Positions 4,233-61,645 of a DNA stretch of 64,000 nucleotides are shown here, one piece after another. Origin of the DNA: Patescibacteria group bacterium. Lineage in GTDB: Bacteria > Patescibacteriota > Patescibacteriia > UBA9934 > GWF2-40-263. The notes under the pieces were generated by a model. It made no database searches and was not told the origin of the DNA. It saw only the letters and a list, made by a program, of their open reading frames with translations. The first letter of the stretch is position 1. The number at the start of each line of letters is the position of its first letter. A program made the position numbers and the translations under genes. The stretch is from the NCBI GenBank assembly GCA_018814025.1, contig JAHJAM010000002.1, positions 2,798 to 66,797 of the forward strand. The letters are read 5' to 3'.

Positions 4233-6233
4233 ATGGATAAATTTAAATTAAAAGCACCCTATCAGCCGGCTGGCGATCAGCCCAAAGCCATTGAACAATT
4301 AATGGCTGGTTTGGATTCGGGGAAAAAATTTCAAACTTTGCTGGGCGTGACCGGCTCGGGCAAAACCTACACCATGGCCAACGTGATTGCTAAATCCAAT
4401 CGCCCCACTTTGGTGATCGCCCATAACAAAACTTTGGCGGCCCAGCTTTGCAATGAGTTTCGAGAATTTTTTCCGGATCATGCCGTGGAATATTTCGTCA
4501 GTTATTACGATTACTATCAACCCGAGGCCTACATGCCGCGCTCGGATACTTATATTGAAAAAGAAGCGCAGATTAATGATGAGATTGATCGGCTGCGCCA
4601 CGCGGCCACCCAAGCCATTCTCACGCGGCGCGATGTGATTATCGTGGCCTCGGTTTCTTGCATTTATGCTTTGGGTTCGCCTGAGGAATATAAGGCCACG
4701 GTTTTGCATTTGCAGGTCGGGGAGGGGAATCGGGCGGATATTTTGCATACTTTGGTTAAATTGCAGTTTGAACGTACGAATGCGGACTTAACGCGCGGCC
4801 ATTACCGGGTGCGCGGCGATGTTCTGGAAATCATGCCCGTGGATCACGAAATAATATATCGCGTGACTTTTGCGGACGACGCGGTGGCGAAAATCGACCA
4901 AATGGATCCGATTACGCGCAAAAAGCTTGAGGAATATCAGGACGCTTGGCTGTTTCCGGCCACTCACTTTGTGGTTTCGCCAGCTAAACAACAACAGGCT
5001 TTGCGGGAAATTAAGCGCGAACTGGAGCAGCAATTAAAGAAAATGGATAAGGAAGGGAAAGTTTTGGAAGCCGAGCGTTTAAAGCGGCGCACTCGTTATG
5101 ATTTGGAAATGATTCAAAATATCGGCTATTGCAACGGCATTGAAAATTATTCGCGCTATTTTGACGGCCGAGCCCCGGGCCAGCCACCATATTCGCTGAT
5201 GGATTTTTTCCCCAAGGATTATTTGTTGATTATTGATGAATCGCACGTGACCGTGCCGCAAATCGGCGGCATGTACGAGGGGGATCGGGCGCGCAAGGAA
5301 ACTTTGGTGGAGCACGGGTTCCGCTTGCCTTCGGCCAAAGACAATCGGCCGCTGAAGTTTGAAGAATTTGAAGAGCGGGTCAATCAAGTAATTTTTACCA
5401 CGGCCACGCCGGGCAAATATGAATTGAAGAACAGCGAGCAAGTGGTGGAACAGATTATTCGGCCCACAGGGCTGATTGATCCGGAAGTAGTCGTGAGACC
5501 TGTATCTGGTGATGATAAGCAAAAAGGCCAGGTGGATGATTTGATCGAGGAAATTGTCACGCGAGCTAAGAAAAATGAGCGTTCGCTGGTCACGACTCTG
5601 ACCAAGCGCATGGCCGAGGATTTAACCGAGTTTTTGAAAGAACGCGACATTAAAGTGCAATATCTCCACTCTGATGTGCAAACTTTGGATCGGATTACGA
5701 TTTTGTCGGATTTTCGCCAGGGCAAATATGATTGCTTGGTGGGCGTGAATTTGCTGCGCGAAGGCTTGGATTTGCCGGAAGTGACGCTGGTGGCGATTTT
5801 GGATGCGGATAAGGAAGGTTTTTTGCGCAGTGCAACATCTTTGATTCAGACCATTGGCCGGGCCGCGCGCAATGTGGCTGGCAAAGTAATTTTGTACGCG
5901 GATAATATGACCGGTTCGCTGGGCCAGGCTTTGAAAGAAACCAATCGGCGCCGGAAAATTCAGCTGGCCCATAACCAAAAGCACCGCATCACGCCGAAAT
6001 CGATTAAGAAAGAAATTCATGATATTCGCGGCCTGCTGGGCGGGGAAGAAATTCCGGACATCAAAGATATTTTGAAACTGGAATTAACGGCCGAGCCGCA
6101 CGAAATCAAAGAAGTGATCGCGGAAAAAGAATATGACATGAAAGAAGCGGCCAAGAAATTGGATTTTGAGACAGCCGCGATTCTGCGGGATGAGATTAGA
6201 TTGTTGAATAATGAGTTGAAAGGAAGACAGTAG
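4233..6233 (+). CDS. uvrB: excinuclease ABC subunit B
   Basis: FKL..PY.PAGDQPKAI and the Walker A motif GVTGSGKT; 667 aa. The start was set at the ATG with GGGGA 11 nt upstream. Confidence 0.95.
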   Translation: MDKFKLKAPYQPAGDQPKAIEQLMAGLDSGKKFQTLLGVTGSGKTYTMANVIAKSNRPTLVIAHNKTLAAQLCNEFREFFPDHAVEYFVSYYDYYQPEAYMPRSDTYIEKEAQINDEIDRLRHAATQAILTRRDVIIVASVSCIYALGSPEEYKATVLHLQVGEGNRADILHTLVKLQFERTNADLTRGHYRVRGDVLEIMPVDHEIIYRVTFADDAVAKIDQMDPITRKKLEEYQDAWLFPATHFVVSPAKQQQALREIKRELEQQLKKMDKEGKVLEAERLKRRTRYDLEMIQNIGYCNGIENYSRYFDGRAPGQPPYSLMDFFPKDYLLIIDESHVTVPQIGGMYEGDRARKETLVEHGFRLPSAKDNRPLKFEEFEERVNQVIFTTATPGKYELKNSEQVVEQIIRPTGLIDPEVVVRPVSGDDKQKGQVDDLIEEIVTRAKKNERSLVTTLTKRMAEDLTEFLKERDIKVQYLHSDVQTLDRITILSDFRQGKYDCLVGVNLLREGLDLPEVTLVAILDADKEGFLRSATSLIQTIGRAARNVAGKVILYADNMTGSLGQALKETNRRRKIQLAHNQKHRITPKSIKKEIHDIRGLLGGEEIPDIKDILKLELTAEPHEIKEVIAEKEYDMKEAAKKLDFETAAILRDEIRLLNNELKGRQ

Positions 6234-6311
6234 AAGGTAGAGAGTAGAAAGGGAATTCACTTTCTACTTTCTACAGCGAGCCATGCGAGCGATATTACTT
6301 TTTACATAACT

Positions 6312-8834
6312 ATGAGCACAGATAAAATAACCATCAGAGGAGCGCGCGAACATAACCTGAAAAACATTAACCTGGAGATTCCGCGCAATAAACTGGTTTG
6401 CATTACCGGCGTTTCCGGCAGTGGCAAGTCCAGTTTGGCTTTTGATACGATTTTTGCCGAGGGCCAGCGCCGCTATGTTGAGTCTTTATCCGCTTACGCG
6501 CGGCAGTTTTTAGGGCAAATGGAAAAGCCGGATGTGGATGAAATCGAAGGCCTTTCGCCGGCCATTTCCATTGATCAAAAAGCGCACAGCTCCAATCCGC
6601 GCTCGACCGTGGCCACGATCACGGAGATTTACGATTATTTGCGCGTGCTGTTCGCACGCATCGGCCGGCCGCATTGCGTGAAGTGCGGACGGGAAATCCA
6701 GAAATTGACCATTGAAGAAATGGTGGACGTGGTTTTGAAGCGGCAAACCGCGGACAAAGGCGCGATTAAAATCTTGGCGCCGGTGGTGCGCGGGCGCAAG
6801 GGCGAGTATTATCAAATGCTTTACGATCTTTATAATTCGGGTTTTGCGCGCGTGCGCATTGACGGTCAAGAATACGATCTCAACAGCGAGATTAAGTTAG
6901 CGCGCTATCAACAGCATACGATTGAAGTGGTGGTGGATACGATTCCCGTGTCCTTGTTTGCCGCCGACGCGAAAGAAGCGCGCCAGCGCTTGGCGGATGC
7001 TTTGGAAATTGCCGTGGCGCGCGGGAATGACGTGGCCACGGTGATTTATCCGGACCAAAGCGAGCAAATGCTGTCCTCGAAATTCAGCTGTCCGGATGAC
7101 GGTTTTTCTTTTCCGGAAATCGAGCCGCGCTTATTTTCTTTTAATTCACCCTACGGTGCGTGCCAGGATTGCACGGGCTTGGGTACGGTGGAGCTGTTTA
7201 GCGAGGAAAAATGCCACACTTGCGAGGGCCAGCGTCTGCGCCCTGAGGCCTTGCATGTTTGGCTGCCGAAAAAAGGCGCCAAAGGCGTTTCGATCGTGGA
7301 TATCACCCGCATGAGCGTGGAGGAAGCCGGGGAATATTTTATAGATATTGTTTTGGACGAGCGGGAAAAGGAAATCGCGGGCACGGTTTTGAATGAAATT
7401 TTGAACCGTTTGCAGTTTATGCTGGACGTGGGGCTTCATTATTTAACTTTGGACCGCATGGCCGGCACTTTGTCCGGCGGCGAAGCGCAGCGCATTCGTT
7501 TGGCTTCGCAAGTCGGTTCGCGCTTAGTGGGCGCGCTTTATGTGCTGGACGAGCCGACTATCGGTTTGCATCAGCGCGATAATGATCGCTTGATCCAAAC
7601 TCTGACCGAATTGCGCGACTTGGGCAATTCGGTTTTGATCGTGGAGCATGATGAGGACACGATTCGGGCCAGCGACCATATGATTGAAATCGGGCCGGGC
7701 GCGGGCGTGCACGGCGGCGAAGTGGTGTGCAATGGCAGCGTGCCGGAGATTTTTAAGGATCAAAAGTCCTTGACCGCGGCTTATTTGCGCGGAGACGAAA
7801 AAATTGACGTGCCCCGGGAGCGGCGTGCCATCGGCCATGACCGGATTAAAATTGTGGGCGCGAGCGAACATAACTTAAAAAACATCAACGTGGAAATTCC
7901 GCTGCGCCGGTTTGTTTGCATTACCGGCGTGTCCGGATCCGGGAAATCAACTTTGGCTTATGAAACCATGTATAAGTCGATTGCTAAGCGTTTGTATGGC
8001 AGTAAGCATCGACCAGGCAAGCATAAATCGTTGTTGGGCATTGAATATATCGACAAAGCGATTTTGATCGATCAGGGCGCGATCGGCCGTTCTTCCCGAT
8101 CCAACCCGGCCACTTATACCGGAGTTTGGGCGCCGGTGCGTGAATTATTTTCGGCCACGGAGGAAGCGCGCTATCGCGGCTATAAGCCGGGCCGGTTCAG
8201 TTTCAATCGGCCGGGCGGGCGCTGCGAACATTGCGAAGGCCATGGATTATTGGCCATTGAAATGCACTTTTTGCCCACGGTGTATGTGACTTGCGACGTG
8301 TGCAAAGGCCGGCGTTTTGATCGGGAAACTTTGGAGATTGAATATAAAGAAAAAAATATCCATGACGTGCTGGAAATGACCGTGGAGGAAGGCTATGAAT
8401 TTTTTAAAGAGATTCCGCCGATTGCGGACAAGTTGAAAACTTTAAATGAAGTGGGTTTGGGCTATTTGAAGATGGGCCAGCCGGCGCCAACCTTATCCGG
8501 CGGGGAAGCGCAGCGCGTGAAGCTGGCTTCGGAATTATCCAAACGGCAAACCGGACGCACTTTGTATTTATTAGACGAGCCGACCACGGGTTTGCATTTT
8601 GCGGATGTAAAAAAACTTTTGGAAGTTTTGCATTCACTGGTGGATAAGGGCAACAGCGTGATTGTGATCGAACACAACTTGGATGTGATTAAAACCGCGG
8701 ATTGGCTGATTGACTTGGGACCGGAAGGTGGTGACAAGGGCGGGGAAGTGGTCAAATGCGGTACACCGGAAGAAATCGCCCGGCACGCGCCATCGTATAC
8801 TGGGGAATATTTGAAGCGGATGTTTAAGAAGTGA
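6312..8834 (+). CDS. uvrA: excinuclease ABC subunit A
   Basis: HNLKNI...[34 protein letters not shown], two ABC modules and zinc-finger cysteines. Confidence 0.95.
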
Positions 8835-9004: not shown

Positions 9005-10153
9005 ATGGAAAAAGCAGTGTCAGGAGTTTTCGCGGAATTGGTCGCCCAGCTGCACAGCGGCCGGCGCCTTACCTTCGAGCATCTCAAGGAATTCCTTGAC
9101 GACCCGCAGGCGGTCATTCCCAGGCAGAATGGAGAATTCGAGATCCTGCTCGCCCTTTTAAAACCGAACGAGGAAGTCATGGAGTTCGGTCTTGAGGACG
9201 ACCGGCAGGCCCTGGTGATCAAGCGCGACAAGGAATATTTTGCGGTGCTGGACGGCGTCGAGCATGGACCCTACGCCGAGATCAAGAGTTTCTTGCATGA
9301 TGACACCCACTTTTGTTTCGCGGCTAAGCGCGGCGAAAACTGGTTTGTGGTCAGGGATGGCGGGGAGTTCGGACCCTACGATCACATCAACGACCTGAAG
9401 TACAGCAACGACCATGTCTTTTTTGAGATCTCCACGGTCATCAATGGCGAAAAAACAGCCGTAGCCGTTCTGGATGGTAAGGTGTTGGGGTCGACGGGCG
9501 GACGCAGCCACGTTGGTTTGGTCGATGGCCACCATTTTTTTGTCCACCCGAGAGATGATGGAGAATGTTATGTGAGTTTGGACGACCAGAAATTTGGGCC
9601 GTTCGCTCCGGTTTCCGGCTTGGGGTATGCGGAAGGCCATTTTTTCTTCATCGAAGGGAACCGCATCCATCTGGACCGCGAAACCATCGATGTTGACGGG
9701 ACTCCTCATCTGGTGGGATATGCGGAAGGCCATCTTTTCTACATCCTCGAACGCACATGTAATCAGAAGAGCGAGTGCTATGCGGTTCTGGATGGAAAAG
9801 AATTTGGGCCGTACGAGTTTTGTGCCAGACCGAATCTTGGTTATTCGGAAGGCCATTTCTATTTTCTGATCGTCGCAGACCGTACGTATGGTGAGGTGAT
9901 CGGAGTCATGGTGGACGGAAAGCAAATCGCCCGCGTCGGCAATGCCTATGACTTGCAGTATTCAAATGGCCACTCATTGTTTCACATGTGGAATTCGGAA
10001 ACCCGAATTGTCCGGGTAATCATGGACGGGCGGTTAGGTGACACGAACATGGATTACGACACAATTTACCTCACGCAGGCCAAGGATAATCGCTTGTTCA
10101 TCTATGGCCGGCGCGGACGGCGGATTTACAAAACCGTCATTCCTCTCAAGTAG
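9005..10153 (+). CDS. tandem-repeat protein with ~38-aa DG.EFGPY...H.FF repeats, unknown family
   Basis: At least 7 degenerate repeats. A strong SD (GGAGAGG) precedes the ATG at 9005. GC content is about 58%, against roughly 48% in the flanks. Confidence 0.6.
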   Translation: MEKAVSGVFAELVAQLHSGRRLTFEHLKEFLDDPQAVIPRQNGEFEILLALLKPNEEVMEFGLEDDRQALVIKRDKEYFAVLDGVEHGPYAEIKSFLHDDTHFCFAAKRGENWFVVRDGGEFGPYDHINDLKYSNDHVFFEISTVINGEKTAVAVLDGKVLGSTGGRSHVGLVDGHHFFVHPRDDGECYVSLDDQKFGPFAPVSGLGYAEGHFFFIEGNRIHLDRETIDVDGTPHLVGYAEGHLFYILERTCNQKSECYAVLDGKEFGPYEFCARPNLGYSEGHFYFLIVADRTYGEVIGVMVDGKQIARVGNAYDLQYSNGHSLFHMWNSETRIVRVIMDGRLGDTNMDYDTIYLTQAKDNRLFIYGRRGRRIYKTVIPLK

Positions 10154-10177
10154 TTCGTTTCTCGCACTATCTCAGCG

Positions 10178-10238
10178 CGTTCCCCCTCGGGAGCGCGCTT
10201 TTTTAATTAATAAAACGGACCCAAGGGGGTCCGTTTGC
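10178..10238. terminator. pair of convergent hairpin terminators
   Basis: agcgcgttcccc..gggagcgcgc followed by TTTTTT on the plus strand, and aaacggaccc..gggtccgttt serving the minus-strand gene. Confidence 0.5.
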
Positions 10239-10239
10239 G

Positions 10240-10644
10240 CTAGAGGAGGCCGAGGAAGCCGAGCCAGCGGCCGTTTTTTGCCCATTGTTTCGGATAGGTG
10301 CGATCAGGGCGTGAGGGCAGGCGCGGATCTTCGCGAAAACGTCTCATGTATTCGGGTTGGGATGGGCATCTCAGCTTGAGTGCGGATTCATGCGCTTCTC
10401 GATAAGTGAGATATTTTTTGATTTTGGGGGCTTGGCCTAAAAATCCGGACATACCGCCAATGCGTTTCCAAGCTCGTTGACCGTAGAATTTATCCGGATT
10501 GGAAGGCAGACGCTTATCGAGATTGTAAAATTCGGCGTATTGAACTCCGGTCTCGAAACCGAGGTTTTGCGCTGCCTGACTGGCTTGTTGGATTTTTGAG
10601 TAAAATCGCGCTCGAGGATCGTATTTTTTTCGTCTTTGAACCAT
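10240..10644 (-). CDS. repeat protein with ~45-aa EDPRLP...Y..W..GGW..FLG repeats (short paralog)
   Basis: 2-3 copies of the same repeat seen in the adjacent upstream gene. Confidence 0.5.
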   Translation of the reverse strand: MVQRRKKYDPRARFYSKIQQASQAAQNLGFETGVQYAEFYNLDKRLPSNPDKFYGQRAWKRIGGMSGFLGQAPKIKKYLTYREAHESALKLRCPSQPEYMRRFREDPRLPSRPDRTYPKQWAKNGRWLGFLGLL

Positions 10645-11811: not shown

Positions 11812-13149
11812 ATGATATCAGTGCTTATGCTTCCCGTTAAAATACAAGTTCAAAACAACCATCTGCCGGACAGTCCAGGCGTGTATTTTTATTACGACCG
11901 GGCCGGGGAGTTGCTGTATATAGGCAAAGCCACTTCATTAAAGAAACGCGTGGGGTCATATTTCGTTAAAGCTCACGACGACCGGATTGGGGAGATGGTC
12001 AGCCAGATTGCGAGGATTGACTATATTGAAACTCCGACCGTGATTGAGGCCTTGGTTTTGGAAGCTAATCAAATCAAGACTAAAAAGCCGAAATATAATA
12101 TTTTGGAACGGGATGACAAAAGCTTTTTGTATTTGGTGATTACTAATGAAGATTATCCGCGGCCGCTCCTGATGCGCGGACAAGAACTCGAGCGATTGGG
12201 AATTGATCCGTTCCGCGCGAAATTGACGGACAAGACCAAGAAAAAGTTTTTGGCCGTGTTCGGGCCGTATACGAGCGGGTCGTCACTTAAAAAAGCTTTG
12301 GATCTGATTCGCAAATTTATTCCTTGGTCGGATTGTTGGCCGCCGGAAGCGACCGGGCGCAAGCGAGCCTGTTTTAATGTGCATTTAAGAAAATGTCCGG
12401 GCGTGTGCACGGGCGCGATTAGCAAAAAGGACTATCGGCGCATCATCAAGCATTTGATCATGTTTTTTGAGGGCAAGAAGCTGCAATTGATCAGACAGAT
12501 GGAAAAAGAAATGAAACAGGCGTCCAAAGCGCAGGAATATGAACGGGCCGCGGATTTGCGCAACAAGATTGGCGCGCTCAAGCACATTCGGGATGTGGCT
12601 TTGATTGTTAAAGAAGATTTTGAACTGCCGGTAACACGGGTCAAAGAAGAAATGATTGATTTGGATGGCCGCATCGAGGCCTATGATATTAGCAATATTT
12701 CCGGCACTTCGTCCGTGGGTTCAATGGTCGTGTTTGAGGAAGGCGTGCCGGCCAGGGATAAATATCGCAAGTTCAAAATCAAAACCGTGCCGGGCGCTAA
12801 TGACGTGGCCATGCTGGAGGAAGTGATGCGGCGGCGGTTGAAGCGGTCAAAAGATTATCCGCAAACTTGGCCGTTGCCGGAAATAATGGTGATTGATGGG
12901 GGAGCGGGCCAGGTGAATCGGACGCAAGCGGTTTTGGATGAATTGCGCGTTAAAGTGCGGATTATCGGCATTGCCAAGGGTTTTGACCGCAAGCAAGATC
13001 GGTTGGTTTTTAATCGCGAGGATTTGGAACTGGCGCGCGTGGCCACGCGCGGCAAGGAAATTTTTCAAAAAGCGCGCGATGAAGCGCATCGGTTCGCGAT
13101 TAAGTATCATCGGCAGGTGCGAGGAAGGAAGTCTTTGGGTCAAAATTGA
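11812..13149 (+). CDS. uvrC: excinuclease ABC subunit C (short form)
   Basis: GIY-YIG motif (SPGVYFYY...YIGKATSLKKRVGSYF) and a UvrC central domain. The alternative in-frame starts are TTG 11788 and ATG 11827, so the exact start is ambiguous. Confidence 0.85.
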   Translation: MISVLMLPVKIQVQNNHLPDSPGVYFYYDRAGELLYIGKATSLKKRVGSYFVKAHDDRIGEMVSQIARIDYIETPTVIEALVLEANQIKTKKPKYNILERDDKSFLYLVITNEDYPRPLLMRGQELERLGIDPFRAKLTDKTKKKFLAVFGPYTSGSSLKKALDLIRKFIPWSDCWPPEATGRKRACFNVHLRKCPGVCTGAISKKDYRRIIKHLIMFFEGKKLQLIRQMEKEMKQASKAQEYERAADLRNKIGALKHIRDVALIVKEDFELPVTRVKEEMIDLDGRIEAYDISNISGTSSVGSMVVFEEGVPARDKYRKFKIKTVPGANDVAMLEEVMRRRLKRSKDYPQTWPLPEIMVIDGGAGQVNRTQAVLDELRVKVRIIGIAKGFDRKQDRLVFNREDLELARVATRGKEIFQKARDEAHRFAIKYHRQVRGRKSLGQN

Positions 13150-15984: not shown

Positions 15985-16080
15985 GGGTTGTCTCCTTTTG
16001 AAAGAACGATTCACCTTTTGAAGCCGTGACAAACGCGTCGCGGGCTCAAGAAGTGCCCCGAGCGGACTTGGGGCAAGCTA

Positions 16081-16113
16081 CGAGGTTTTTTACGATCGTA
16101 AAAAACCTCGTAA
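16081..16113. repeat. 33-bp perfect palindrome TACGAGGTTTTTTACGATCGTAAAAAACCTCGTA
   Basis: Perfect dyad with a CGATCG centre. A second copy with a compensatory G-to-A / C-to-T change in the arms lies at 32641-32673. Confidence 0.8.
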
Positions 16114-17234: not shown

Positions 17235-17262
17235 GGTAGGTAGGGAAATAGTAGGTAGGGTA
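17235..17262. repeat. dispersed motif GGTAGGTAGGGAAATAGTAGGTAGGGTAA
   Basis: One copy of the GTAGGTAGGG repeat family; other copies are listed in the findings. Confidence 0.7.
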
Positions 17263-17329
17263 AAAGGGAGTTATCCACAGATAAAAATATTTTCTTGATT
17301 TTAAAGGGAAAAATTAGTGGCTTAAAGTG

Positions 17330-17358
17330 TTGACGCATGTATGATGGTGGGATATGAT
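17330..17358 (+). promoter_or_regulatory. mraZ promoter (TTGACG-17-TATGAT)
   Basis: Near-consensus -35 and -10 hexamers with 17-nt spacing, about 110 nt upstream of mraZ. Confidence 0.5.
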
Positions 17359-17382
17359 GGAGGCATGTGGAAATAAGTGGGG
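17343..17382 (+). promoter_or_regulatory. putative MraZ operator: four (G/A)TGG(G/A) direct repeats at 10-bp periodicity
   Basis: gatggtggg / gatatgatgga / ggcatgtgga / aataagtgggg, each unit ending at 17350, 17360, 17370 and 17380. E. coli MraZ binds GTGGG repeats with 10-bp spacing that overlap its own promoter. Confidence 0.4.
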
Positions 17383-17468
17383 ATTGGCCGGACTGGATCT
17401 GGCTGATGCTCACTTTTTATTTTTTAAGTGTTCCACTTCATTTTTCCTGAGTTGAATCACAGTTCAAT

Positions 17469-18978: not shown

Positions 18979-19000
18979 GTAGAAAGTAGAAAGTAGAAAG
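18979..19000. repeat. TAGAAAG x3 tandem 7-mer array
   Basis: gtagaaagtagaaagtagaaag. A related array overlaps the uvrB stop at 6231-6275. Confidence 0.7.
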
Positions 19001-19149
19001 TTTACTAGCTTTATACTCCACCTATTGCAGAGGTCCCCACTACTCAAAAACAAAAATACTACGGCCTGATACGCAGGCCCGTGACGGCCAAAATAGCCGC
19101 ACGGGCCATGCCCTTATAACGGGGTGATTGGCAAAACAAAAACCAAATT

Positions 19150-24324: not shown

Positions 24325-24831
24325 ATGGCGGAAGTGAAGGAAGCGCTCAAAAAAGTTCCGGAAATGCCCGCGGCCGAAGCGCCGCGGGAGGTTGAGGTTA
24401 GGCAGGAGAAAAGGGAAAAAGTAGGTAGGGAAGAAGGGGGTGGGGAGAAAATTCAAGATTCTGAAGTCACCCAAGCTGAACAAGCAGTGCAGATGGCAGC
24501 TGCGGCACCCCCGCCTTTGGTGAAGGATCCGATTGTGGCTCAGATTGAAAGCGTGATGGCTGAGGATTTAACGGACTTGTTTTTGGGCTTATCGCCGGAA
24601 CAACAAGCCGTGTTTCAGCAAAAAGGCGAAGAAACCGCTTCTTTGATCAAGGAAATGATTATGCAGGCCAAAGTCAACATGAAGAAAGTTTTCGAATTGC
24701 TGCGGGATTGGCTGCGGCTGCTGCCCGGGGTCAATAAGTTCTTTCTGGAGCAAGAAGCGAAAATTAAAGCTGATAAAATTTTAGGGCTGGCCAAAGAAGA
24801 ACAGCGACGGGCCAGCGAACAAATTGCATGA
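24325..24831 (+). CDS. hypothetical coiled-coil protein containing an in-frame GGTAGGTAGGGAA motif
   Basis: The start was re-set to the ATG at 24325 (MAEVKEALKK), with a TACAAT box 10 nt upstream. The segment KVGREEGGGEK is encoded by the dispersed motif. The stop overlaps the start of the downstream ATPase gene. Confidence 0.45.
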   Translation: MAEVKEALKKVPEMPAAEAPREVEVRQEKREKVGREEGGGEKIQDSEVTQAEQAVQMAAAAPPPLVKDPIVAQIESVMAEDLTDLFLGLSPEQQAVFQQKGEETASLIKEMIMQAKVNMKKVFELLRDWLRLLPGVNKFFLEQEAKIKADKILGLAKEEQRRASEQIA

Positions 24832-27383
24832 TGATTTTTCAGTTCGGATTGGAAACATTCGATCAAACGAATTTCACCGCGACCGGAACGGGCGCGGATT
24901 GGGGTTTTCTAATTCCAATTTTATGGTTAGTCGGAATTTTGGCCGCCGCGGCCATGGTGATTTATTTGGCGTTATATTTTATCCGCCACCGCGCGCAGGT
25001 TCGGTCCGCAACTTTTGACTTAGTCACGCTGTTAATCACGCTGCCGAAATTTCGCCGCGAAGAAGAGTCTGAGCGAGGCGGTTCAAAAGAAGACGTGCAA
25101 GAAACGATTGCGGCCGCGGAAACTTTCTTTTCGGCCGTGGCCGGCTTGAAAGCGGAAAAAGGTTTTATGAAGTGGCTGCTGGGCAAGAATGATCAGTTTT
25201 CATTCGAAATCGTGATGCATAAGAATCTGATTAAGTTTTACGCGGCCGTGCCCAGGCATTTACAGGATTTCTTTCAACAACAGCTGTCCGCGGCTTATCC
25301 GGACGCGTTCATCGAAGAGGTTGAGGATTACAATATTTTTTCTCCGACCGGGGTGATTTTGGGCAGCTATTTAACGCTCAAGCGGGAAAATGGCTTTCCC
25401 ATTAAAACTTATCGCCAGCTGGATAAAGATCCGCTGAATGCGCTGACCAATGTCTTATCAAAATTGCCCGCGGATGAAGGCGCGGTTTTTCAATACGTGG
25501 TGCGCTCGGCGCCGGGCGCTTGGCGCAAACGCGGCGTAAAAATCGCTCAAGACATGCAACAAGGCATGAGTTTGGAAGAAGCGATCAGCGGTAAAAAGAA
25601 ATCTTCGGTCAAAGAATTGACCGGTTTATCAGCCGAGGATAAAAAACCGGAAAAAGAACACCGCTTATCGCCGCAAGAAGAAGAAACCGTCAAAGGCCTG
25701 GAAGAGAAAGCCAGCAAGGGCGGCATGGAAGTTTGCGTGCGCTTGATGGTTTCGGGTGCGAACGCGGGCACGGCCCAGACCACGCTGGCTAATATGATCA
25801 ATGCTTTTTCCCAATACAATATCTATCAATACGGCAACTCTTTCGTGAAATCCGTGCCCAAATCAAAAAATAAAATCACGCAGCGTTTTATTTACCGGGC
25901 TTTCAACGAGCACATGGTTTGCGTTTTGAATACCGAGGAAATGGCCAGTTTGTGGCATTTGCCCACGCCTTGGACCGAAACGCCGAATATCAAGTGGCTG
26001 GGCGCTCGCCGCGGGGCCGTGCCATCGGGCGTGCCCAAGAGCCGGGCCGAGGAAGGCCAACTGGAATTGGGCTTTAATGTTTATCGGGGCATTAAGACGC
26101 CGGTTTGGATGAAAGGGCCGGATCGCTCGCGCCACATGTACATCATTGGCAAATCCGGATCCGGCAAATCAGAAACCATTGCCAAGTATGCGATTCAAGA
26201 CATTCAAAACGGACACGGCGTGGCCGTGGTGGAACCGCACGGCGATTTGGTGGAGCGGATTTTAGCCAATATCCCCAAAGAGCGGGTGGATGACGTGATT
26301 TATTTCTGTCCGTCTGATTTGGAGCGGCCCATGGGCTTGAATATGCTGGAGGCCAAGGATGAAAGCATGAAAGACATGGCCGTGCAGGAAATGATTTCAA
26401 TTTTTTACAAATTGTTCCCGCCGGAAATGATCGGACCGCAATTTGAGCACACGATGCGCAATATGATGCTGACCTTGATGGCTGATCAAGAAAATCCGGG
26501 GACTTTAGCGGAAATTCCGCGGATTATTACGGACGCGGATTTTCAACAGGAATGGGTGGCGAAAGTGAAAGACCCGGTGGTTCGGGCTTATTGGGAAAAA
26601 GAAGTCGCCAACACCAGCGACTTCCACAAGTCAGAGATGTTCGGATATTTGACCTCAAAAGTCGGCCGGTTCGTGGAAAACGAAATGATGCGCAACATCA
26701 TCGGCCAGTCGCATTCCAGTTTTGACTTCAGGGAAGTCATGGATAAGAAAAAGATTTTGCTGGTCAATCTTTCCAAAGGCAAGACCGGGGATGTAAATTC
26801 GGAACTGCTGGGCATGATCATTGTTTCCAAACTGCAAATGGCGGCGCTGGGCCGGGCGGACATGCCCGAGAGCGAGCGCAGCGACTTTTATCTTTACATC
26901 GATGAGTTCCAGAACTTCATTACGGATTCCATTGCCACAATTTTGTCCGAAGCGCGCAAGTACCGGTTGAATCTGATCATCGCCCACCAATATATCGGCC
27001 AATTGGTGAAGAACGGGGACACGAAAATTCGCGATGCGGTGTTTGGCAACGTGGGCACCAACTTTGTGGCCCGAATCGGGCCCGAAGACGTGGAAATGCT
27101 CGAGCCCATCTACTCACCGGAGTTTTCCGGATATGATTTGATGAATTCTGATAAGTTTACTTGGTATGTGAAGATGATTGTGGATAACTCTCAAGTTAAG
27201 CCTTTTACCATGAATTTGGCACCTTCGCCGTCGGGAAATCGGGAATTAGCCGAGGCCATTAAGGAACTTTCTCGGTTGAAATATGGACGGGATCGCGCTA
27301 TTGTCGAAGCAGAGATATTAGAGCGTTCGCAATTGGGCACGGCCGGGCGGGGACCCCAGAGGCCGGGCCCGGGAGAGATATAA
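24828..27383 (+). CDS. VirD4/TraG/TraD-family (FtsK/HerA-like, DUF87-type) membrane-anchored ATPase
   Basis: N-terminal TM, Walker A (IIGKSGSGKSETI) and Walker B (FYLYIDEFQNF) motifs; 851 aa. Confidence 0.55.
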   Translation: MMIFQFGLETFDQTNFTATGTGADWGFLIPILWLVGILAAAAMVIYLALYFIRHRAQVRSATFDLVTLLITLPKFRREEESERGGSKEDVQETIAAAETFFSAVAGLKAEKGFMKWLLGKNDQFSFEIVMHKNLIKFYAAVPRHLQDFFQQQLSAAYPDAFIEEVEDYNIFSPTGVILGSYLTLKRENGFPIKTYRQLDKDPLNALTNVLSKLPADEGAVFQYVVRSAPGAWRKRGVKIAQDMQQGMSLEEAISGKKKSSVKELTGLSAEDKKPEKEHRLSPQEEETVKGLEEKASKGGMEVCVRLMVSGANAGTAQTTLANMINAFSQYNIYQYGNSFVKSVPKSKNKITQRFIYRAFNEHMVCVLNTEEMASLWHLPTPWTETPNIKWLGARRGAVPSGVPKSRAEEGQLELGFNVYRGIKTPVWMKGPDRSRHMYIIGKSGSGKSETIAKYAIQDIQNGHGVAVVEPHGDLVERILANIPKERVDDVIYFCPSDLERPMGLNMLEAKDESMKDMAVQEMISIFYKLFPPEMIGPQFEHTMRNMMLTLMADQENPGTLAEIPRIITDADFQQEWVAKVKDPVVRAYWEKEVANTSDFHKSEMFGYLTSKVGRFVENEMMRNIIGQSHSSFDFREVMDKKKILLVNLSKGKTGDVNSELLGMIIVSKLQMAALGRADMPESERSDFYLYIDEFQNFITDSIATILSEARKYRLNLIIAHQYIGQLVKNGDTKIRDAVFGNVGTNFVARIGPEDVEMLEPIYSPEFSGYDLMNSDKFTWYVKMIVDNSQVKPFTMNLAPSPSGNRELAEAIKELSRLKYGRDRAIVEAEILERSQLGTAGRGPQRPGPGEI

Positions 27384-28145: not shown

Positions 28146-29741
28146 ATGTCTCAAGCGATTTATCGAAAATATCGGCCCGGAAAATTCTCGGACGTGACCG
28201 GACAGGATCACGTGATTCAGACGCTGCAGAATCAAATTAAAAATGATTCGGTGGCGCATGCTTATCTTTTTACCGGTCCGCGCGGCATCGGCAAGACCAC
28301 GGTGGCTCGGTTGTTGGCGAAGGCCGTGAATTGCGAAAAGAGCAAAGATTTTGAACCGTGCAATGCATGCCCGGCTTGCGAGGATATCGCGGGCGGAGCG
28401 TCTTTGGACGTGGTGGAAATTGACGCCGCTTCCCAGACCGACGTGGAGAACGTGCGCGAGAATATTGTGAAAAGCGTGCGTTTCACGCCCAATCGTCTCA
28501 AGTACAAAGTTTATATCATTGACGAGGTTCACATGCTTTCCGCCTCTTCTTTCAATGCTTTGCTGAAAACTTTGGAAGAACCGCCGGCGCATGGCATTTT
28601 TATTTTAGCCACCACGGAAATTCACAAAGTGCCGCAGACCATCATCAGCCGCTGCCAGCGGTTTGATTTTCGCCGGATTCCGGTCCCGATGCTAGTGGCT
28701 CGGCTCATGGGAATCATCGATCAGGAGGGTATTAAAGTTGACGAGGATGTGTTGCAGGAAGTGGCGCGCCACGCGGACGGCTGCGCACGCGATGCGGAAA
28801 GTTTGCTGGGCCAGATTTTAGCCATGGCCGGCCAAGATTCAATCAGCATGGAAGCGGCCAGCTTGGTTTTGCCGGCCACGACCACGGTGTTGGTGCTGGA
28901 TTTTGTTGATTCGCTGGCGAATGATCAAGCCAAAGCCGCGATTGAACAATTGGATAATTATGTGGAACAGGGGATTGATATGCCCCAGTTTATGGATGAT
29001 GTAATCGATTTTTTCCGGATTTTGCTTTTTGCTAAAATGGGCAATCGCGATTTATTGGAAATGTCTTTTAACTCGGACACGGTAGCCGGCGCGGATCAAA
29101 TTTTACCGAAGCTGACTTTGAGTAAAATTACCCAAGCGATTGCCGCTTTTTTGGAAGCCCGGCGGCATATGAAGCTGGACAAGATTCCGCAGTTGTCCGC
29201 GGAATTGGCGGTTTTGGATTTGTGCGGGAAAAAGGTAGGTAGGGAAGAAGAAGGTAGGGTAGAAGACTCCAGCAAACTGGATTTTAAGGAACAGGGGGCT
29301 GGTTCGGGTTCGGAGAGAGAGGTTGGAAATAATCAACAAGAGTTGGAAACTAACGAGATAGTTGGAGAGGTTGAAAAAGAACCAACTGTTCCGATTCAAG
29401 CCAAAGAAACGGTTTTTGATTCCGTGCCCGTGATCGATTTGGCAGAAGTCAAAAGAAAGTGGCCGGATGTTTTTCAGCAATTAAAACAATGCAATGCGTC
29501 TTTGCCCATCATGATTCAAGCCGGCCAGCCTTCGGCCGTCAACGGCGACCAAGTGGAAATATCATTTGAATACGCCCTCTATGCGGACACCATGAATCGT
29601 GATAAGAATAAAAAACTTTTGGAAGAAGTGATGAAAAAAGTGATCGGCAAGCCGCTGCGGATTCACGCCAAGCATGAGAATTTGAAGGCGGATCAGGCCG
29701 TGTCGGATTTAATTGATCAATTTGGAGGATCAGTAGTGTAA
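28146..29741 (+). CDS. dnaX: DNA polymerase III subunit gamma/tau
   Basis: AYLFTGPRGIGKTT, the zinc module CNACPAC and DEVHML. The linker contains an in-frame GGTAGGTAGGGAAGAAGAAGGTAGGGTAG motif (29234-29265), which encodes KVGREEEGRVE. Confidence 0.95.
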   Translation: MSQAIYRKYRPGKFSDVTGQDHVIQTLQNQIKNDSVAHAYLFTGPRGIGKTTVARLLAKAVNCEKSKDFEPCNACPACEDIAGGASLDVVEIDAASQTDVENVRENIVKSVRFTPNRLKYKVYIIDEVHMLSASSFNALLKTLEEPPAHGIFILATTEIHKVPQTIISRCQRFDFRRIPVPMLVARLMGIIDQEGIKVDEDVLQEVARHADGCARDAESLLGQILAMAGQDSISMEAASLVLPATTTVLVLDFVDSLANDQAKAAIEQLDNYVEQGIDMPQFMDDVIDFFRILLFAKMGNRDLLEMSFNSDTVAGADQILPKLTLSKITQAIAAFLEARRHMKLDKIPQLSAELAVLDLCGKKVGREEEGRVEDSSKLDFKEQGAGSGSEREVGNNQQELETNEIVGEVEKEPTVPIQAKETVFDSVPVIDLAEVKRKWPDVFQQLKQCNASLPIMIQAGQPSAVNGDQVEISFEYALYADTMNRDKNKKLLEEVMKKVIGKPLRIHAKHENLKADQAVSDLIDQFGGSVV

Positions 29742-32027: not shown

Positions 32028-32091
32028 GTTTAACTTGAGCTGAGAAGATTAACGATAATTGTTACGATCGGATAAAAGTCCGTAAGGAAAT

Positions 32092-32637: not shown

Positions 32638-32640
32638 TCC

Positions 32641-32673
32641 TACGAAGTTTTTTACGATCGTAAAAAACTTCGT
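32641..32673. repeat. 33-bp perfect palindrome TACGAAGTTTTTTACGATCGTAAAAAACTTCGTA
   Basis: Second copy of the 16081 palindrome with compensatory arm changes. It begins 4 nt after the stop of gene 32092..32637. Confidence 0.8.
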
Positions 32674-32786
32674 ACGCCGTGCAGTCGGCGTTTGATTCTT
32701 CATGCATTCGAGGGTTCGGGATTTTAAGATCGAATGTTTTTCTGTTATGATGCTTTTGACAAGGCTGAGAGCCAAAGCTAGAAAAC

Positions 32787-42314: not shown

Positions 42315-44315
<2,001 letters not shown>

Positions 44316-44326
44316 GGTATAAGGGT

Positions 44327-44698
44327 ATGCAAATAAAAACTCGGACATTTGTTGATCTGGTTGTTTGGCAGCAGGCTCATAAGTTCGTACTTTCTTTGTA
44401 TCAGTTAACAAAAAGTTTTCCTGATACTGAAAGGTACGGACTGGTTACTCAATTGAGGAGAGCGGGTGTATCAGTAACATCTAACATTGCTGAGGGTTAT
44501 ACACGTTTTGGTCGAAAAAATAAGGCTCATTTTTACACGATGTCACAAGCATCATTAACTGAGATTCAAAATCAGTTGATATTATCAAGGGATTTAGGTT
44601 ATATTTCTAGCGAAAATTATGATAGACTTTGGGAACATACGTTAGATATTTATCGAATGTTAAATATATTAATTAGAAGTGTGAAAGTAAATCCCTGA
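44327..44698 (+). CDS. four-helix-bundle protein (23S rRNA intervening-sequence protein family)
   Basis: QLRRAGVSVTSNIAEGY...S..E..NQL is the hallmark of this family. The gene is AT-rich and is flanked by inverted copies of the GTAGGTAGGGT motif (44304-44326 and 44699-44726). Confidence 0.75.
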   Translation: MQIKTRTFVDLVVWQQAHKFVLSLYQLTKSFPDTERYGLVTQLRRAGVSVTSNIAEGYTRFGRKNKAHFYTMSQASLTEIQNQLILSRDLGYISSENYDRLWEHTLDIYRMLNILIRSVKVNP

Positions 44699-44730
44699 TA
44701 CCCTACCTACTTTTGCCCTACCTCCTATTT

Positions 44731-45036: not shown

Positions 45037-45043
45037 ATATACA

Positions 45044-45130
45044 GACCCCCTCCCAGCCTCCCCCTTGGTAAGGGGGAGGAGTAACCGAGGGTTCCCCTTC
45101 CTTACCAAGGAGGGGGTTAGGGGGAGGTCT
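45044..45130. repeat. GC-rich double hairpin / imperfect inverted repeat between gatC and gatA
   Basis: The two elements are CCCCCTTggtAAGGGGGAGG and CCCCTTCCTTaccAAGGAGGGGG. The outer arms gaccccctcccagcctcc and ggagggggttagggggaggtc pair to give a cruciform-capable element. Confidence 0.6.
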
Positions 45131-47367: not shown

Positions 47368-48126
47368 ATGATTCCATACTTTACGGCCACAACTTTTCAT
47401 CTCGGTCCGATCCCGATTCAGGTTTGGGGAACTTTGGTGGCTCTGGGAATTTTAGCCGGCACTTTTGCTTCGGCTTGGCTGGCTAAGCAACGAAAGCAAG
47501 ACGCGGGCTTGATTTGGGATTTGGCCACTTGGGTGATTCTAGGTGCTTTTGTCATGGCGCGCGTGTTTCATGTGTGGCTTTATAATTTCGATTATTATGC
47601 GGCTGATCCGACCAAGATATTCGTGATTTGGGAAGGCGGCTGGTCGATCATCGGTGGTTTTTTGGGGGCGGTCTTAGCCGGCGCATGGTATTTAAAAAAA
47701 CGCCAAGTGAATTTTGGGGAGTATGCGGACACCACAATTTTTGGTTTGCCTTTAGGCTTGTTCATCGGACGGATCGGATGCTTTTTGATTCATGATCATC
47801 CGGGCAAGATCACGAATTTCTTTTTGGGCGTGCAGTATCCGGATGGAATCATTCGCCACGATCACGGATTATATTTGTCCTTAAGCGGTTTGGGTTTGTT
47901 TGCGGCGTATCTGATTATGTGGAAATTGAAAATTGAAAAAGGATTGTTGCTGCCGGTATTTTTGTTGTGGTATGGGGCAGTCAGATTCGTTTTGGATTTT
48001 TATCGAGCCACGGACGGGTTGATTGTGGATGCCAGATATTGGGGTTTGACTCCGGCTCAGTTCGCGTCTTTGTTTATGATAGTGCTGGGGATAACTTTAT
48101 TAATAAGAAAAAGGAAGCATATTTAA
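47368..48126 (+). CDS. lgt: prolipoprotein diacylglyceryl transferase
   Basis: Typical Lgt N-terminus with HLGPIPIQVWG, the Lgt signature G..I(G)R.G.F.N.E in GLFIGRIGCFLIHDHPG, and 7 TM segments. Confidence 0.9.
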   Translation: MIPYFTATTFHLGPIPIQVWGTLVALGILAGTFASAWLAKQRKQDAGLIWDLATWVILGAFVMARVFHVWLYNFDYYAADPTKIFVIWEGGWSIIGGFLGAVLAGAWYLKKRQVNFGEYADTTIFGLPLGLFIGRIGCFLIHDHPGKITNFFLGVQYPDGIIRHDHGLYLSLSGLGLFAAYLIMWKLKIEKGLLLPVFLLWYGAVRFVLDFYRATDGLIVDARYWGLTPAQFASLFMIVLGITLLIRKRKHI

Positions 48127-48235
48127 TCACTGTCAAGGAATCAAAAATTTTTTATAAAAGCCTCTTAATAAGGGCTTTTTTCATATGCTTGTGGATAACT
48201 TGATAAATAAAGATAAATACGCTATGGTGGAAATA

Positions 48236-52684: not shown

Positions 52685-52763
52685 AATATAAATATTATAA
52701 CATAGGAAGTAGGGGAGAAGTAGGTGGGGTGAAAATAAAATATCTGATATACTTATTATCAAT

Positions 52764-53720
52764 ATGCTGACAAATATACTTGTATTGATTGCCGGATTTA
52801 TTCTTTTAATTCGCGGCGCGGATTATTTGGTGAAGGGCGCGGCTTCCATGGCGCGGCGCCTGGGCGTGCGCGCGTTTGTGGTGGGTTTGACGGTGGTGGC
52901 TTTCGGCACTTCGGCGCCCGAGCTGGTAGTTAACGTTTTGTCCGCCACTTCCGGATCAACCGGTTTGGCTTTGGGCAATGTTTTGGGTTCCAATTTGGCA
53001 AATATCCTTTTGATTCTTGGAATTGCCGCGATCATTTCGCCCGTGATTTTGCATCGGGGAACGGTTTGGAAAGAATTACCGCTGTTGCTTTTGGCTTCAG
53101 TGCTGGTCGTGGTCTTGGGCAGCGATATTTTTTTTGACGGCTCTTTTAGCAACATTATTTCTCGGATTGACGGAATCGTTCTGCTTTCTTTTTTTGTCAT
53201 CTTTTTATATTACACGCACGGTGCCAGCAAAGGGCAATCTGATGAACATGAACAAATTGATGTGTATGATAAGAAGAGAACCGCTATTTATTTGATCGGC
53301 GGCTTGGCGGGTTTAGCTTTGGGCGGCAAATTCATTGTGGATTCGGCTGTGTTTATCGCTCAGGCTTTCAGCGTATCCGAACATGTGATCGGGGCCACGA
53401 TTGTGGCCGTGGGCACTTCGCTGCCGGAATTGGCCACCACTATCGTGGCGGCCATAAAAAAACACACGGACATTGCCGTGGGCAATGTGGTGGGCTCCAA
53501 TTTGTTCAACGTTTTTTTCGTGCTGGGCACGACCGTGGTTATTCGGCCTTTAGCTTTTGACCACGCGGCCTGGCAGGATGCAATGATCGTTTTGGGCATT
53601 ACTTTGATTCTCTTTATGTCTTTGTTCGTGGGCAAGCGGCATCATTTTGAAAAATGGCAAGGCGTCACATTTGTGGGGATGTATCTGGCGTATATCGTGT
53701 TTTCAGTTTTTAGGGGGTAG
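52764..53720 (+). CDS. Ca2+/cation antiporter (CaCA family, YrbG-like)
   Basis: Two alpha-repeat motifs, GTSAPELVVNV and GTSLPELATTIVAA. The stop TAG is embedded in GGTAGGTAGGGAA. Confidence 0.85.
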   Translation: MLTNILVLIAGFILLIRGADYLVKGAASMARRLGVRAFVVGLTVVAFGTSAPELVVNVLSATSGSTGLALGNVLGSNLANILLILGIAAIISPVILHRGTVWKELPLLLLASVLVVVLGSDIFFDGSFSNIISRIDGIVLLSFFVIFLYYTHGASKGQSDEHEQIDVYDKKRTAIYLIGGLAGLALGGKFIVDSAVFIAQAFSVSEHVIGATIVAVGTSLPELATTIVAAIKKHTDIAVGNVVGSNLFNVFFVLGTTVVIRPLAFDHAAWQDAMIVLGITLILFMSLFVGKRHHFEKWQGVTFVGMYLAYIVFSVFRG

Positions 53721-53810
53721 GTAGGGAAATCGTCGGTAGGGCAAAGGGGCCTCGCGGCCTCTTTTTGTGTCTTGAATATTCAGGCTAAACAAGGCAAGCT
53801 AGTGATACCT

Positions 53811-59519: not shown

Positions 59520-59524
59520 AAATC

Positions 59525-59902: not shown

Positions 59903-59967
59903 AAAAAAAAGATAAATGATTGATTGGAATATTATAGCATCTTCCGGCGTTTTTTCTGAGACAAGGT

Positions 59968-59996
59968 TTGACAATTAGGGAATCATGACTCATAAT
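59968..59996 (+). promoter_or_regulatory. rlmN promoter TTGACA-17-CATAAT (near-leaderless)
   Basis: Consensus -35 and good -10 with 17-nt spacing. The -10 ends 8 nt before the rlmN ATG (60005), which implies a leaderless or very short-leader mRNA. Confidence 0.45.
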
Positions 59997-60004
59997 CAGG
60001 CGTT

Positions 60005-61033: not shown

Positions 61034-61046
61034 AAATCAGCCTTAT

Positions 61047-61155
61047 AATTCGTCATTGTGAGGAAGGAGTTTCAATCGACTGACGAAGCAATTTTGAATG
61101 ACTTGAGATTGCTTCGCTCGATAAATTACTCGCTCGCCATGACGAAGAATTTCTG
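61047..61155. repeat. structured repeat element, copy 2
   Basis: See copy 1. Its 3' portion supplies the last ~10 codons and the stop of the minus-strand gene 61126..61602. Confidence 0.7.
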
Positions 61156-61602
61156 GGGCTGATTGTATATTTGAGTAAAATCACTGACGATTTGCGGTTT
61201 CATACCCAGGATTTCTTCCCGATAATCCAGATCCGGGATCTCGAACATCAGATAAATCGGCTTTTGCAAATGGCAGGCCAGGCCCATTTCCATGAGTGTG
61301 TTGGCGCCGATGTAGCCTTTGATGCCTCTTTTTTCGTAATTGGTCACGACGATTATGTCTGACCAAATCACTTTGTCGAAATGAGCGCGCATGGAGCGTT
61401 CTTTTTGGTCCCAAACCCAAGCGGCATCATCGCCGGATTCTTTTCGAAGTTTATAATAATCCGCCACGGCCATGGGCCGGCCGTCCGGTCCAGGGATTTC
61501 GTGCGGTGGCAGGCGAACTTCGTGGCCCAGCTCTTCGAGTTGTTTTTGCGCGGCCAGCATTTCATTGTAAAAAGCAATGCTGCCGCAAAGCGTGATTTTC
61601 AT
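61126..61602 (-). CDS. nucleoside 2-deoxyribosyltransferase-like protein (putative)
   Basis: MKITLCGS...DIIVVT...GANTLMEMGLA...KPIYL parallels the NDT fold and the catalytic Glu region of Lactobacillus NDT (GLGMELGYA). Confidence 0.35.
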   Translation of the reverse strand: MKITLCGSIAFYNEMLAAQKQLEELGHEVRLPPHEIPGPDGRPMAVADYYKLRKESGDDAAWVWDQKERSMRAHFDKVIWSDIIVVTNYEKRGIKGYIGANTLMEMGLACHLQKPIYLMFEIPDLDYREEILGMKPQIVSDFTQIYNQPQKFFVMASE

Positions 61603-61645
61603 AGGAAAGTAGGTAGGGAAGAAGTAGGTAGGGTTAGAGGGGGTT
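61603..61645. repeat. dispersed motif AGGAAAGTAGGTAGGGAAGAAGTAGGTAGGGTTAGAGGGGG
   Basis: GTAGGTAGGG family, two tandem units. Confidence 0.7.

Follow-up and report, generated by a model that had tools for sequence, protein, structure and literature searches.

A dispersed 15-nt repeat in a Patescibacteria genome has the sequence of the arms of an S23p-type four-helix-bundle cassette

Short G-rich sequences containing TAG recur along a 64-kb stretch of the genome of a Patescibacteria group bacterium (contig JAHJAM010000002.1), where they overlap stop codons, lie in frame within dnaX and bracket a small AT-rich gene between ligA and gatC. This raises the question of what kind of element these repeats are and how they relate to the genes around them. 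A preliminary description of this DNA considered them to be a genome-specific family resembling repetitive extragenic palindromes (REPs) or minisatellites, and missed that the motif is the arm sequence of a cassette of the intervening sequence (IVS) type that encodes an S23p/four-helix-bundle protein. The account that we favor, with moderate confidence, is that arm repeats of IVS-type cassettes make up both the 15-mer arrays and a second set of GTAGAAA heptamer arrays, that the solo copies are extra single arms and that the 10-nt core of the 15-mer is a constrained recognition sequence. Motif counts, loci and gene content given below all refer to this one 64-kb stretch of the genome, which we call the window.

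The 15-mer family in the window

The sequence GTAGGTAGGG has 13 matches in the window at no more than one mismatch, as compared to 0.98 ± 0.98 in 100 dinucleotide shuffles of the same DNA (maximum of 4). The claim that the repeat is non-random is thus well founded, and all ten coordinate ranges first listed do contain the sequences attributed to them. The GTAGGTAGGG family spans eight loci, or approximately one locus per 8 kb (Table 1), and a position weight matrix scan of the window found no convincing copies beyond these eight, which indicates that the initial list of loci was complete. The repeat unit is 15 nt long (GTAGGTAGGGnAnAA) and comprises a near-invariant 10-nt core, GTAGGTAGGG, and a variable 5-nt spacer. 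The commonest array is a head-to-tail dimer followed by GGG, i.e. (GTAGGTAGGGAAGAA)2GGG, with distinguishable units, the usual ending being AAGAA in the first and TAAAA in the second. Both intragenic copies contain approximately 2.6 units. Within the window there are 9 mismatches in 150 core positions versus 19 in 75 spacer positions (P = 7e-5), a difference that is in part an ascertainment effect. The units contain no C and present GTAG twice. On the sense strand TAG closes two frames, so that only one of the three sense frames is open, and both intragenic copies therefore share the same frame, which is read as KVGREE in DnaX and in ORF 24325 just as the preliminary description had stated.

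The GG and GGG runs of the motif had also suggested a G-quadruplex element acting on transcription or translation. ViennaRNA predicts a quadruplex at 24421 (-1.3 kcal/mol) and at 53717 (-7.0 kcal/mol) but at none of the other five of seven loci, and the two that are predicted use flanking Gs that are not conserved, while the conserved core itself has only two-G runs apart from one GGG. The idea of a conserved G-quadruplex is not supported by this pattern, and we give such an element almost no weight.

Approximately 91% of the window is coding, with 48 of the 69 modelled genes on the plus strand, and six of the eight loci lie in the ~9% that is non-coding (P≈1e-5, binomial test on the non-coding fraction, with the copy at 52705 called intergenic using the NCBI start of the DUF389 gene). 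The proposed location at gene boundaries is thereby borne out, but a location at 3' gene ends is not, as the copies at 17236 and 52705 are in divergent promoter regions and the one at 61609 is antisense. Only three of the eight loci have a sense copy downstream of a gene, which argues against a general role in defining transcript 3' ends. Two 15-mer copies donate TAG stop codons, to ligA (44313-44315) and to the CaCA antiporter gene (53718-53720). A third stop, that of uvrB (6231-6233), comes from the heptamer hairpin at 6230-6274, and all three had been correctly placed within repeats.

The family was then sought outside of the window. Motif copies are absent from 52 kb of syntenic DNA from the relatives L062 (LigA 87% identical), L063 (LigA 84%), L068 (LigA 66%) and L067 (DnaX 60%), versus eight loci in the window. 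A dimer pattern with 18 fixed bases was scanned over both strands of 185,579 GTDB species genomes (596 Gb) and returned 10 singletons in unrelated phyla, with ~17 expected by chance arithmetic; a dimer scan of JGI metagenomes returned only singletons and satellites, none related to the window. Neither scan found a multi-copy genome, and the source genome and its relatives are not among the matches. As judged by these comparisons, the 15-mer family is lineage-specific, in agreement with the genome-specific family originally proposed. The unrelated metagenome contig L033 was rejected as a member because it carries an unrelated, longer intergenic repeat. This ~110-nt repeat is present there in two copies (7479-7600 and 9454-9590), each with a GTAGGTAGGG dimer at its head and then a conserved hairpin-containing sequence (GGACGCTCCTAAAGGGGACAGGC…).

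The G-rich strand is the plus strand at seven of the eight loci. The GC skew is +0.10 to +0.21 along the whole window (GC content of 48.9%). A bias of this kind, on a strand with a skew of +0.15, could be that of a replication-oriented polar signal, such as the FtsK-orienting polar sequences (KOPS), the SpoIIIE recognition sequences (SRS) or Chi, or that of a DNA uptake sequence. The sequence AGGTAGGG is one mismatch from the E. coli KOPS, GGGNAGGG, and type IV pilus genes are nearby. However, composition alone favors the G-rich orientation of a 10-mer with seven Gs and no C by (G/C)^7 ≈ 8-fold. Signals of the KOPS and Chi type are 8-12-mers common to related species and found throughout coding DNA, with one copy in every 1-5 kb or so, whereas the elements described here are arrays of 30 nt that occur only in spacers and linkers, with a density of one per 8 kb and no copy in the 52 kb of relatives that have the same skew. 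A 7:1 strand bias close to the expectation from base composition, together with absence from relatives, thus argues against KOPS, Chi and uptake roles, and we view the polar-signal reading as very improbable and already largely refuted. Known uptake sequences (DUS and USS) occur at around one copy per kb in both orientations; an uptake sequence was rejected here on the basis of one locus per 8 kb with seven of eight in one orientation.

A four-helix-bundle cassette and its relatives

Two inverted copies of the repeat bracket the AT-rich gene between ligA and gatC, an arrangement that had been noted before and that our analysis upholds. The encoded protein matches the S23p-type four-helix-bundle family (Pfam, 1.4e-35; TIGR02436, 9.3e-34) and the solved Xanthomonas homolog PDB 2GSC (8e-19), a type of S23p that forms a homopentamer (PMC4990558). 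The gene has a GC content of 30-40% versus 49% for the window. LigA takes its final codons (LGR) and its TAG stop from the left arm, which finishes 1 nt short of the ATG of the cassette gene, while the right arm overlaps the TGA stop of the cassette gene. Complementarity between the arms reaches 94% along 18 nt, and this terminal stem is closed in the minimum-free-energy fold of the 445-nt cassette transcript (z = -4.3). In both L062 and L068 ligA abuts gatC with no cassette at the site, and thus the cassette of the window is an insertion.

An orthologous cassette lies upstream of gatC in L064, an independent 1.1-kb contig from ERZ25749332, with full dimers on both sides that are complementary at 92% over 24 nt; the 5' arm has one unit in the window and two in L064. 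The two proteins are 75% identical and the divergence of the ORF is 26%, with a ratio of nonsynonymous to synonymous divergence (dN/dS) of 0.15 and a proportion of synonymous differences (pS) of 0.58 (dS≈1.1), meaning that synonymous sites are near saturation. The cassette open reading frame (ORF) is under purifying selection. Over the same distance the arm cores differ at 1 of 30 positions versus 7 of 15 in the spacers (Fisher P=9e-4), and this value is also well below the 26% divergence of the enclosed ORF (P=1.4e-3) and its pS of 0.58 (P=2e-10). The arms were located by synteny, so this comparison is free of ascertainment bias. Upkeep of the stem alone would allow compensatory change, and therefore the core itself is either constrained or continually homogenized. 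The upstream part of L064 (2-490) contains an in-frame TAA and an unrelated ORF, and after these a 15-codon ligA 3' tail; either that lineage has undergone a rearrangement or the assembly is chimeric (coverage of 1.7). The gatC DNA of the window is 84% identical to that of L062 and 77% to that of L064, over 180 nt and with L064 shifted towards AT. Our reading of the cassette distribution as patchy was withdrawn as it rested on these 180 nt and on the AT-shifted L064; a single insertion in the common ancestor of the window and L064 is equally possible. No paralogs of the four-helix-bundle gene were found when these were sought as a route to other contigs of the same metagenome-assembled genome (MAG).

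A core that is far more conserved than its spacer or neighboring coding DNA makes the protein or RNA recognition site listed among the early suggestions plausible. Such core-specific constraint with a free spacer could mean that the arrays are binding sites of a host DNA- or RNA-binding protein with a regulon or a nucleoid-organizing role, and that the cassette arms exploit or mimic such a site. The direct-repeat architecture is typical of multimeric binders, and two of the copies are in divergent promoter regions. In contrast, copies in coding linkers, over stop codons and antisense in an operon spacer are ill-suited to a regulon, no sites at all are present in close relatives whose gene order is the same, and a different series, of the GTGGG type, is found in the mraZ promoter region. 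We consider host binding sites an improbable explanation.

The heptamer arrays extend the arm pattern to a second family. The TAGAAAG 15-mer has 5 matches versus 0.01 expected. The hairpin at 6230-6274 has a 15-bp stem and an 8-nt loop (z = -4.4), and TAG is present in all three frames, the first being the uvrB stop. The array previously seen at 18979 is present and can be described further, as its decayed inverted partner makes it a second, oppositely oriented copy of this hairpin, with 82% complementarity to 6242-6274 along 33 nt. From its sequence, the TAGAAAG family appears to be an ORF-less hairpin of the IVS-type cassette class, and it fits the arm pattern.

Six further four-helix-bundle homologs, 45-57% identical and from Patescibacteria, Peribacteria and Bacteroidales, were analyzed in their genomic context (Table 1). 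All six are co-directional with the housekeeping operons in which they lie, and inverted arrays of short tandem units are clear on both sides of all but one, including L069, L070, L072 and L073. Arm sequences are wholly different between lineages and complementary within each, and in every cassette an ATG lies within a few nt 3' of the arm. Stops in all three sense frames are found in the heptamer arms of the TAGAAAG family of the window, of L069, of L070 and of Coxiella, and in two frames in L065. The complements of most of the heptamer arms tested contain no stop codon.

Table 1. Repeat arrays and cassette components of the window, and related cassettes in other genomes
Feature	Coordinates	Strand	Sequence or product	Context
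PF05635/TIGR02436 four-helix-bundle (S23p-type) gene	44327..44698	+	product of 123 aa	
Cassette left (5') arm	44304..44325	+	one second-type unit GTAGGTAGGGTATAA + GGG	
Cassette right (3') arm	44693..44725	-	inverted full dimer GGAGGTAGGGCAAAA GTAGGTAGGGTATCA GGG (minus strand)	
Solo dimer	17236..17268	+	GTAGGTAGGGAAATA GTAGGTAGGGTAAAA GGG	divergent spacer, minus-strand hypothetical gene / mraZ
In-frame array	24411..24450	+	2.6 units (…EKREKVGREEGGGEK…)	variable N-terminal region of conserved ORF 24325-24831
In-frame array	29226..29266	+	2.2-2.6 units (KKVGREEEGRVED)	dnaX, directly after conserved domain III
Degenerate solo dimer	52705..52734	+	GGAAGTAGGGGAGAA GTAGGTGGGGTGAAA	divergent spacer, DUF389 gene (minus) / CaCA antiporter gene
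Solo dimer	53717..53749	+		supplies TAG stop of CaCA antiporter gene
Solo dimer	61609..61641	+		nearly fills 31-nt spacer between two minus-strand genes
ORF-less heptamer hairpin	6230..6274	.	GTAGAAG + stem GTAGAGAGTAGAAAG, loop GGAATTCA, stem CTTTCTACTTTCTAC	
Heptamer array	18979..19018	.	(GTAGAAA)x3 + decayed inverted partner	between rsmH and ftsL
L065/L066 cassette	L065 9968-10403		TAGTATN x5; 33-nt inverted repeat, 88% complementary	
L069 cassette	7196-7655		GTAGNNN x4	between lexA and dinB
L073/L074 cassette (Peribacteria)	L073 ~5960-6440		AGTATNN x4	between lexA and dinB
L070 cassette	9959-10409		TAGAATN x3-4	between pgm and fpg
L072 cassette (Bacteroidales)	~5935-6480		AGTTAAG-type tandem units	
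L071 cassette	4154-4561		CATGATT x3; upstream partner weak	between grpE and dnaK

These cassettes bear directly on the main competing explanation, which is that the 15-mer is an independent, lineage-specific and non-palindromic interspersed repeat, a self-spreading REP- or minisatellite-like filler, with the two cassette copies being only two more insertions into spacers. Six of the eight loci have no cassette, adjacent occupied spacers are expected ~0.46 times by chance (our own estimate), and the CaCA gene, too, has a copy on either side. The likeness of the arms would be explained if both are of the second-unit type, and GTAG REPs likewise donate TAG stops and insert in frame into repair and replication genes (PMC3733652). 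What makes an independent repeat less likely is the retention of both inverted arms by L064 across dS≈1.1 and the generality of the arms, as inverted tandem-unit arms are present at the other four-helix-bundle genes examined (one with a weak upstream partner); the arms are thus intrinsic to the cassette. Additionally, the 15-mer has no palindrome and the window has no Y1 transposase. We judge this explanation to be unlikely.

With respect to the individual copies, the DnaX segment KKVGREEEGRVED is an insertion relative to 11 homologs, most of which are gapped there in a 12-sequence alignment, and it sits in a length-variable region immediately after domain III, consistent with the earlier suggestion of an insertion in a variable linker. 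ORF 24325-24831 is also a genuine gene, and its L067 ortholog is gapped at the motif segment. The ORF is the small conserved one that precedes a gene for a TraG/TrwB-like type IV coupling protein located upstream of dnaX in both genomes (window 24828-27383; L067 6815-9358). The dimer at 53717 has a 3' GGG tail that merges into an intrinsic-terminator hairpin (53743-53764) upstream of dnaG. The dimer at 61609 lies between the ATG of the next gene (61600-61602) and a CYTH gene whose stop it overlaps (61634-61636), with its G-rich strand on the plus strand and antisense to transcription. The copy at 17236 is followed ~100 bp downstream by a distinct GTGGG series that repeats every 10 bp. This series (17340-17385, ~90 bp upstream of mraZ) reads GGTGGG, GATGGA, TGTGGA and AGTGGGG and resembles the MraZ operator, the consensus of which is direct G-rich repeats with a ~10-bp period in the mraZ promoter. 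An identity of the motif itself with the MraZ operator was rejected, given its position ~100 bp upstream of the series and its 15-bp period.

Several other features were observed in the same DNA. An Rfam scan of the window found three tRNAs only and no rRNA. The source bacterium is close to Candidatus Uhrbacteria; its LigA and DnaX proteins belong to clusters named 'Patescibacteria group bacterium', with Uhrbacteria as the next-nearest named matches. A second assembly (L001; contig JAHJJE010000007.1 of MAG GCA_018822945.1) is 99.98% identical to window positions 34090-54315, with four single-nucleotide polymorphisms, none inside the repeats, and no polymorphism in unit number. An 88-nt G/C-rich palindrome (AGACCCCCTC…CCCCCTTGGTAAGGGGGAGG…) fills the gatC-gatA spacer (45043-45130), and its core recurs after gatC in L062 (~12390-12430) and directly after the ligA stop in L063 (5272-5301); it represents either another small element, this one truly palindromic, or an RNA structure that is conserved. 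Two gene ends (16078-16112 and 32640-32674) carry a near-identical 35-nt perfect palindrome, TACGAGGTTTTTTACGATCGTAAAAAACCTCGTA, with a weaker copy at 32050-32084; this palindrome resembles a bidirectional terminator, and the relatives sampled lack it.

Comparison with known elements

The closest known counterpart is the IVS of 23S rRNA. ORF-containing IVSs of Leptospira and Coxiella burnetii encode S23p, a four-helix-bundle protein of the Xanthomonas type, and in Coxiella two or three tandem heptamers (GACAGAT) of strain-variable number precede the S23p ORF in an IVS that is excised by RNase III (PMC4990558). The cassette of the window shares with these elements a PF05635/TIGR02436 protein with homology to PDB 2GSC (E=8e-19), an ORF in the loop of a long stem formed from terminal inverted repeats, a 5' arm of short tandem repeats with variable copy number, a start codon directly after the arm with no strong Shine-Dalgarno sequence evident, and a sporadic distribution among relatives. 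It differs in that it resides in a protein-coding operon (ligA-gatCAB) and not in helix 25 or 45 of 23S rRNA, in that its unit is a 15-mer and not a heptamer, and in that its ORF is under purifying selection and not decaying. Single arms dispersed in the genome, including in frame within genes, are also undescribed for IVSs in the literature that we searched.

The preliminary comparison with REPs is only partly sustained. GTAG REPs are imperfect palindromes with a GTAG tag and a stem-loop of 6-13 bp, and it is RAYT enzymes, transposases of the Y1 type, that mobilize them (Di Nocera et al. 2013, PMC3733652). Like these, the 15-mer arrays are ~33 nt, multi-copy, mostly extragenic, often dimeric and specific to a species, contain GTAG, provide neighboring ORFs with TAG stops and also occur in frame within genes for replication and repair, so the dispersed, mostly extragenic habit holds. 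However, the six solo 15-mer loci fold with the motif unpaired (z of -2.5 to +1.0), with no palindrome; they are head-to-tail dimers, which are rare for REPs, and the window has no RAYT. As the solo copies are not palindromic, they are not REPs. A REP-like outward form is seen only in the heptamer hairpin at 6230-6274, where an unpaired GTAG precedes a stem of 15 bp (6237-6274). A RAYT/Y1 link was not supported either, as the 64-kb window contains no Y1 gene and those of L062 and L068 are flanked by unrelated inverted repeats. These PF01797 transposase genes lie within 7499-9869 in L062 and 20389-21252 in L068. The one in L062 has 18-nt inverted repeat flanks (GGGGTCAGGTCTTGAATC) and forms, with two hypothetical genes, a 2.5-kb insertion between a prepilin peptidase gene and ligA that the window does not have.

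Three other classes were compared. Rickettsia palindromic elements also insert in frame into permissive regions of essential genes, but are palindromic and 100-150 bp long, unlike the non-palindromic tandem arrays of 30-40 nt in the window. The accessory protein Avd of diversity-generating retroelements (DGRs) has a homologous four-helix-bundle pentamer fold. The cassette protein matches the Avd model (NCBIfam; PF22296) only weakly, at 29 bits versus a cut-off of 80, and no template/variable repeat pair is present in the window. A reverse transcriptase was likewise not found among the scanned proteins (about half of the window ORFs) or among the gene calls of 34090-54315. Miniature inverted-repeat transposable elements were rejected because the solo copies are direct tandem arrays with no inverted partner in the position weight matrix scan and no target-site duplication. 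A literature search on PF05635, S23p or REPs in Patescibacteria turned up only the Coxiella IVS paper and a DGR review.

Proposed mechanism and significance

We propose that an IVS-type element would consist of an S23p/four-helix-bundle ORF, or nothing, between inverted arrays of short tandem units. On this reading, the window holds one intact cassette in the ligA-gatCAB operon, one ORF-less hairpin family with two copies, and six single 15-mer arms. When transcribed with the operon, the arms may pair into an 18-27-bp stem around the ORF, which by analogy with the Coxiella IVS may be a substrate of RNase III. The stop-rich 5' arm would end the upstream gene within a few codons and place the cassette ATG right after the stop, such that translation of the cassette ORF could be coupled to termination upstream. 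Single arms may then have accumulated wherever a 91%-coding genome tolerates them, that is, in spacers, where they sometimes donate a stop, and through the one open frame in linkers of DnaX and ORF 24325 that are presumably disordered. Recognition by a protein is the most likely function of the 10-nt core, with the encoded pentameric four-helix-bundle protein and an enzyme that moves the arms as candidates. The effect on the host at most solo sites is probably incidental.

A number of points weigh against this account, and its weakest part is how single arms spread. The solo copies are single arms, and we know of no mechanism that spreads one half of an inverted-repeat element. The 64-kb window contains no transposase, with Y1/RAYT (PF01797) searched by tblastn, and no four-helix-bundle pseudogene remnants are found beside the solo copies. 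(The C-terminal frame of lgt at 47959-48138 has weak tblastn matches to N-terminal halves of four-helix-bundle proteins, the best at E=0.005 among 120 queries, and this similarity is probably due to chance.) An adjacent pair of occupied spacers is not very improbable at the chance expectation given above, and the pair of copies around the CaCA gene is in direct orientation. Conservation of the core within the window is affected by ascertainment, as already described, and core conservation in general could instead reflect gene conversion among copies. Additionally, L064 is a 1.1-kb contig of low coverage (1.7), and the evidence from this genome spans 64 kb. Finally, the other cassette-bearing genomes sampled hold arm units at the cassette only, with no dispersed solo arms in the 15-20 kb examined of each, and solo-arm proliferation is thus peculiar to this lineage.

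It has been an open problem since the 1990s where rRNA intervening sequences come from and how they move, and S23p/PF05635 proteins, although very common in bacteria, have to our knowledge no known function. The window links a dispersed repeat family to the arms of an intact, maintained cassette and to a constrained 10-nt core, and this core is a concrete and testable candidate ligand for the S23p/PF05635 protein. It also suggests that IVS-type elements may be general invaders of operon spacers with stop-rich arms, and not curiosities of rRNA. A broader version of this idea, which we offer only as a doubtful speculation, is that TIGR02436/S23p genes with inverted tandem-repeat arms are widespread, unrecognized operon-invading cassettes of which the 23S IVS is a special case that happened to be seen first; the arms would serve both as frame-independent stops and as binding or processing sites for the pentamer, and the GTAGGTAGGG arm would have escaped to form solo recognition sites throughout this genome. 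For the annotation of genomes of the candidate phyla radiation, the family accounts for unusual surroundings of stop codons and for inserts of low complexity in essential proteins, DnaX among them.

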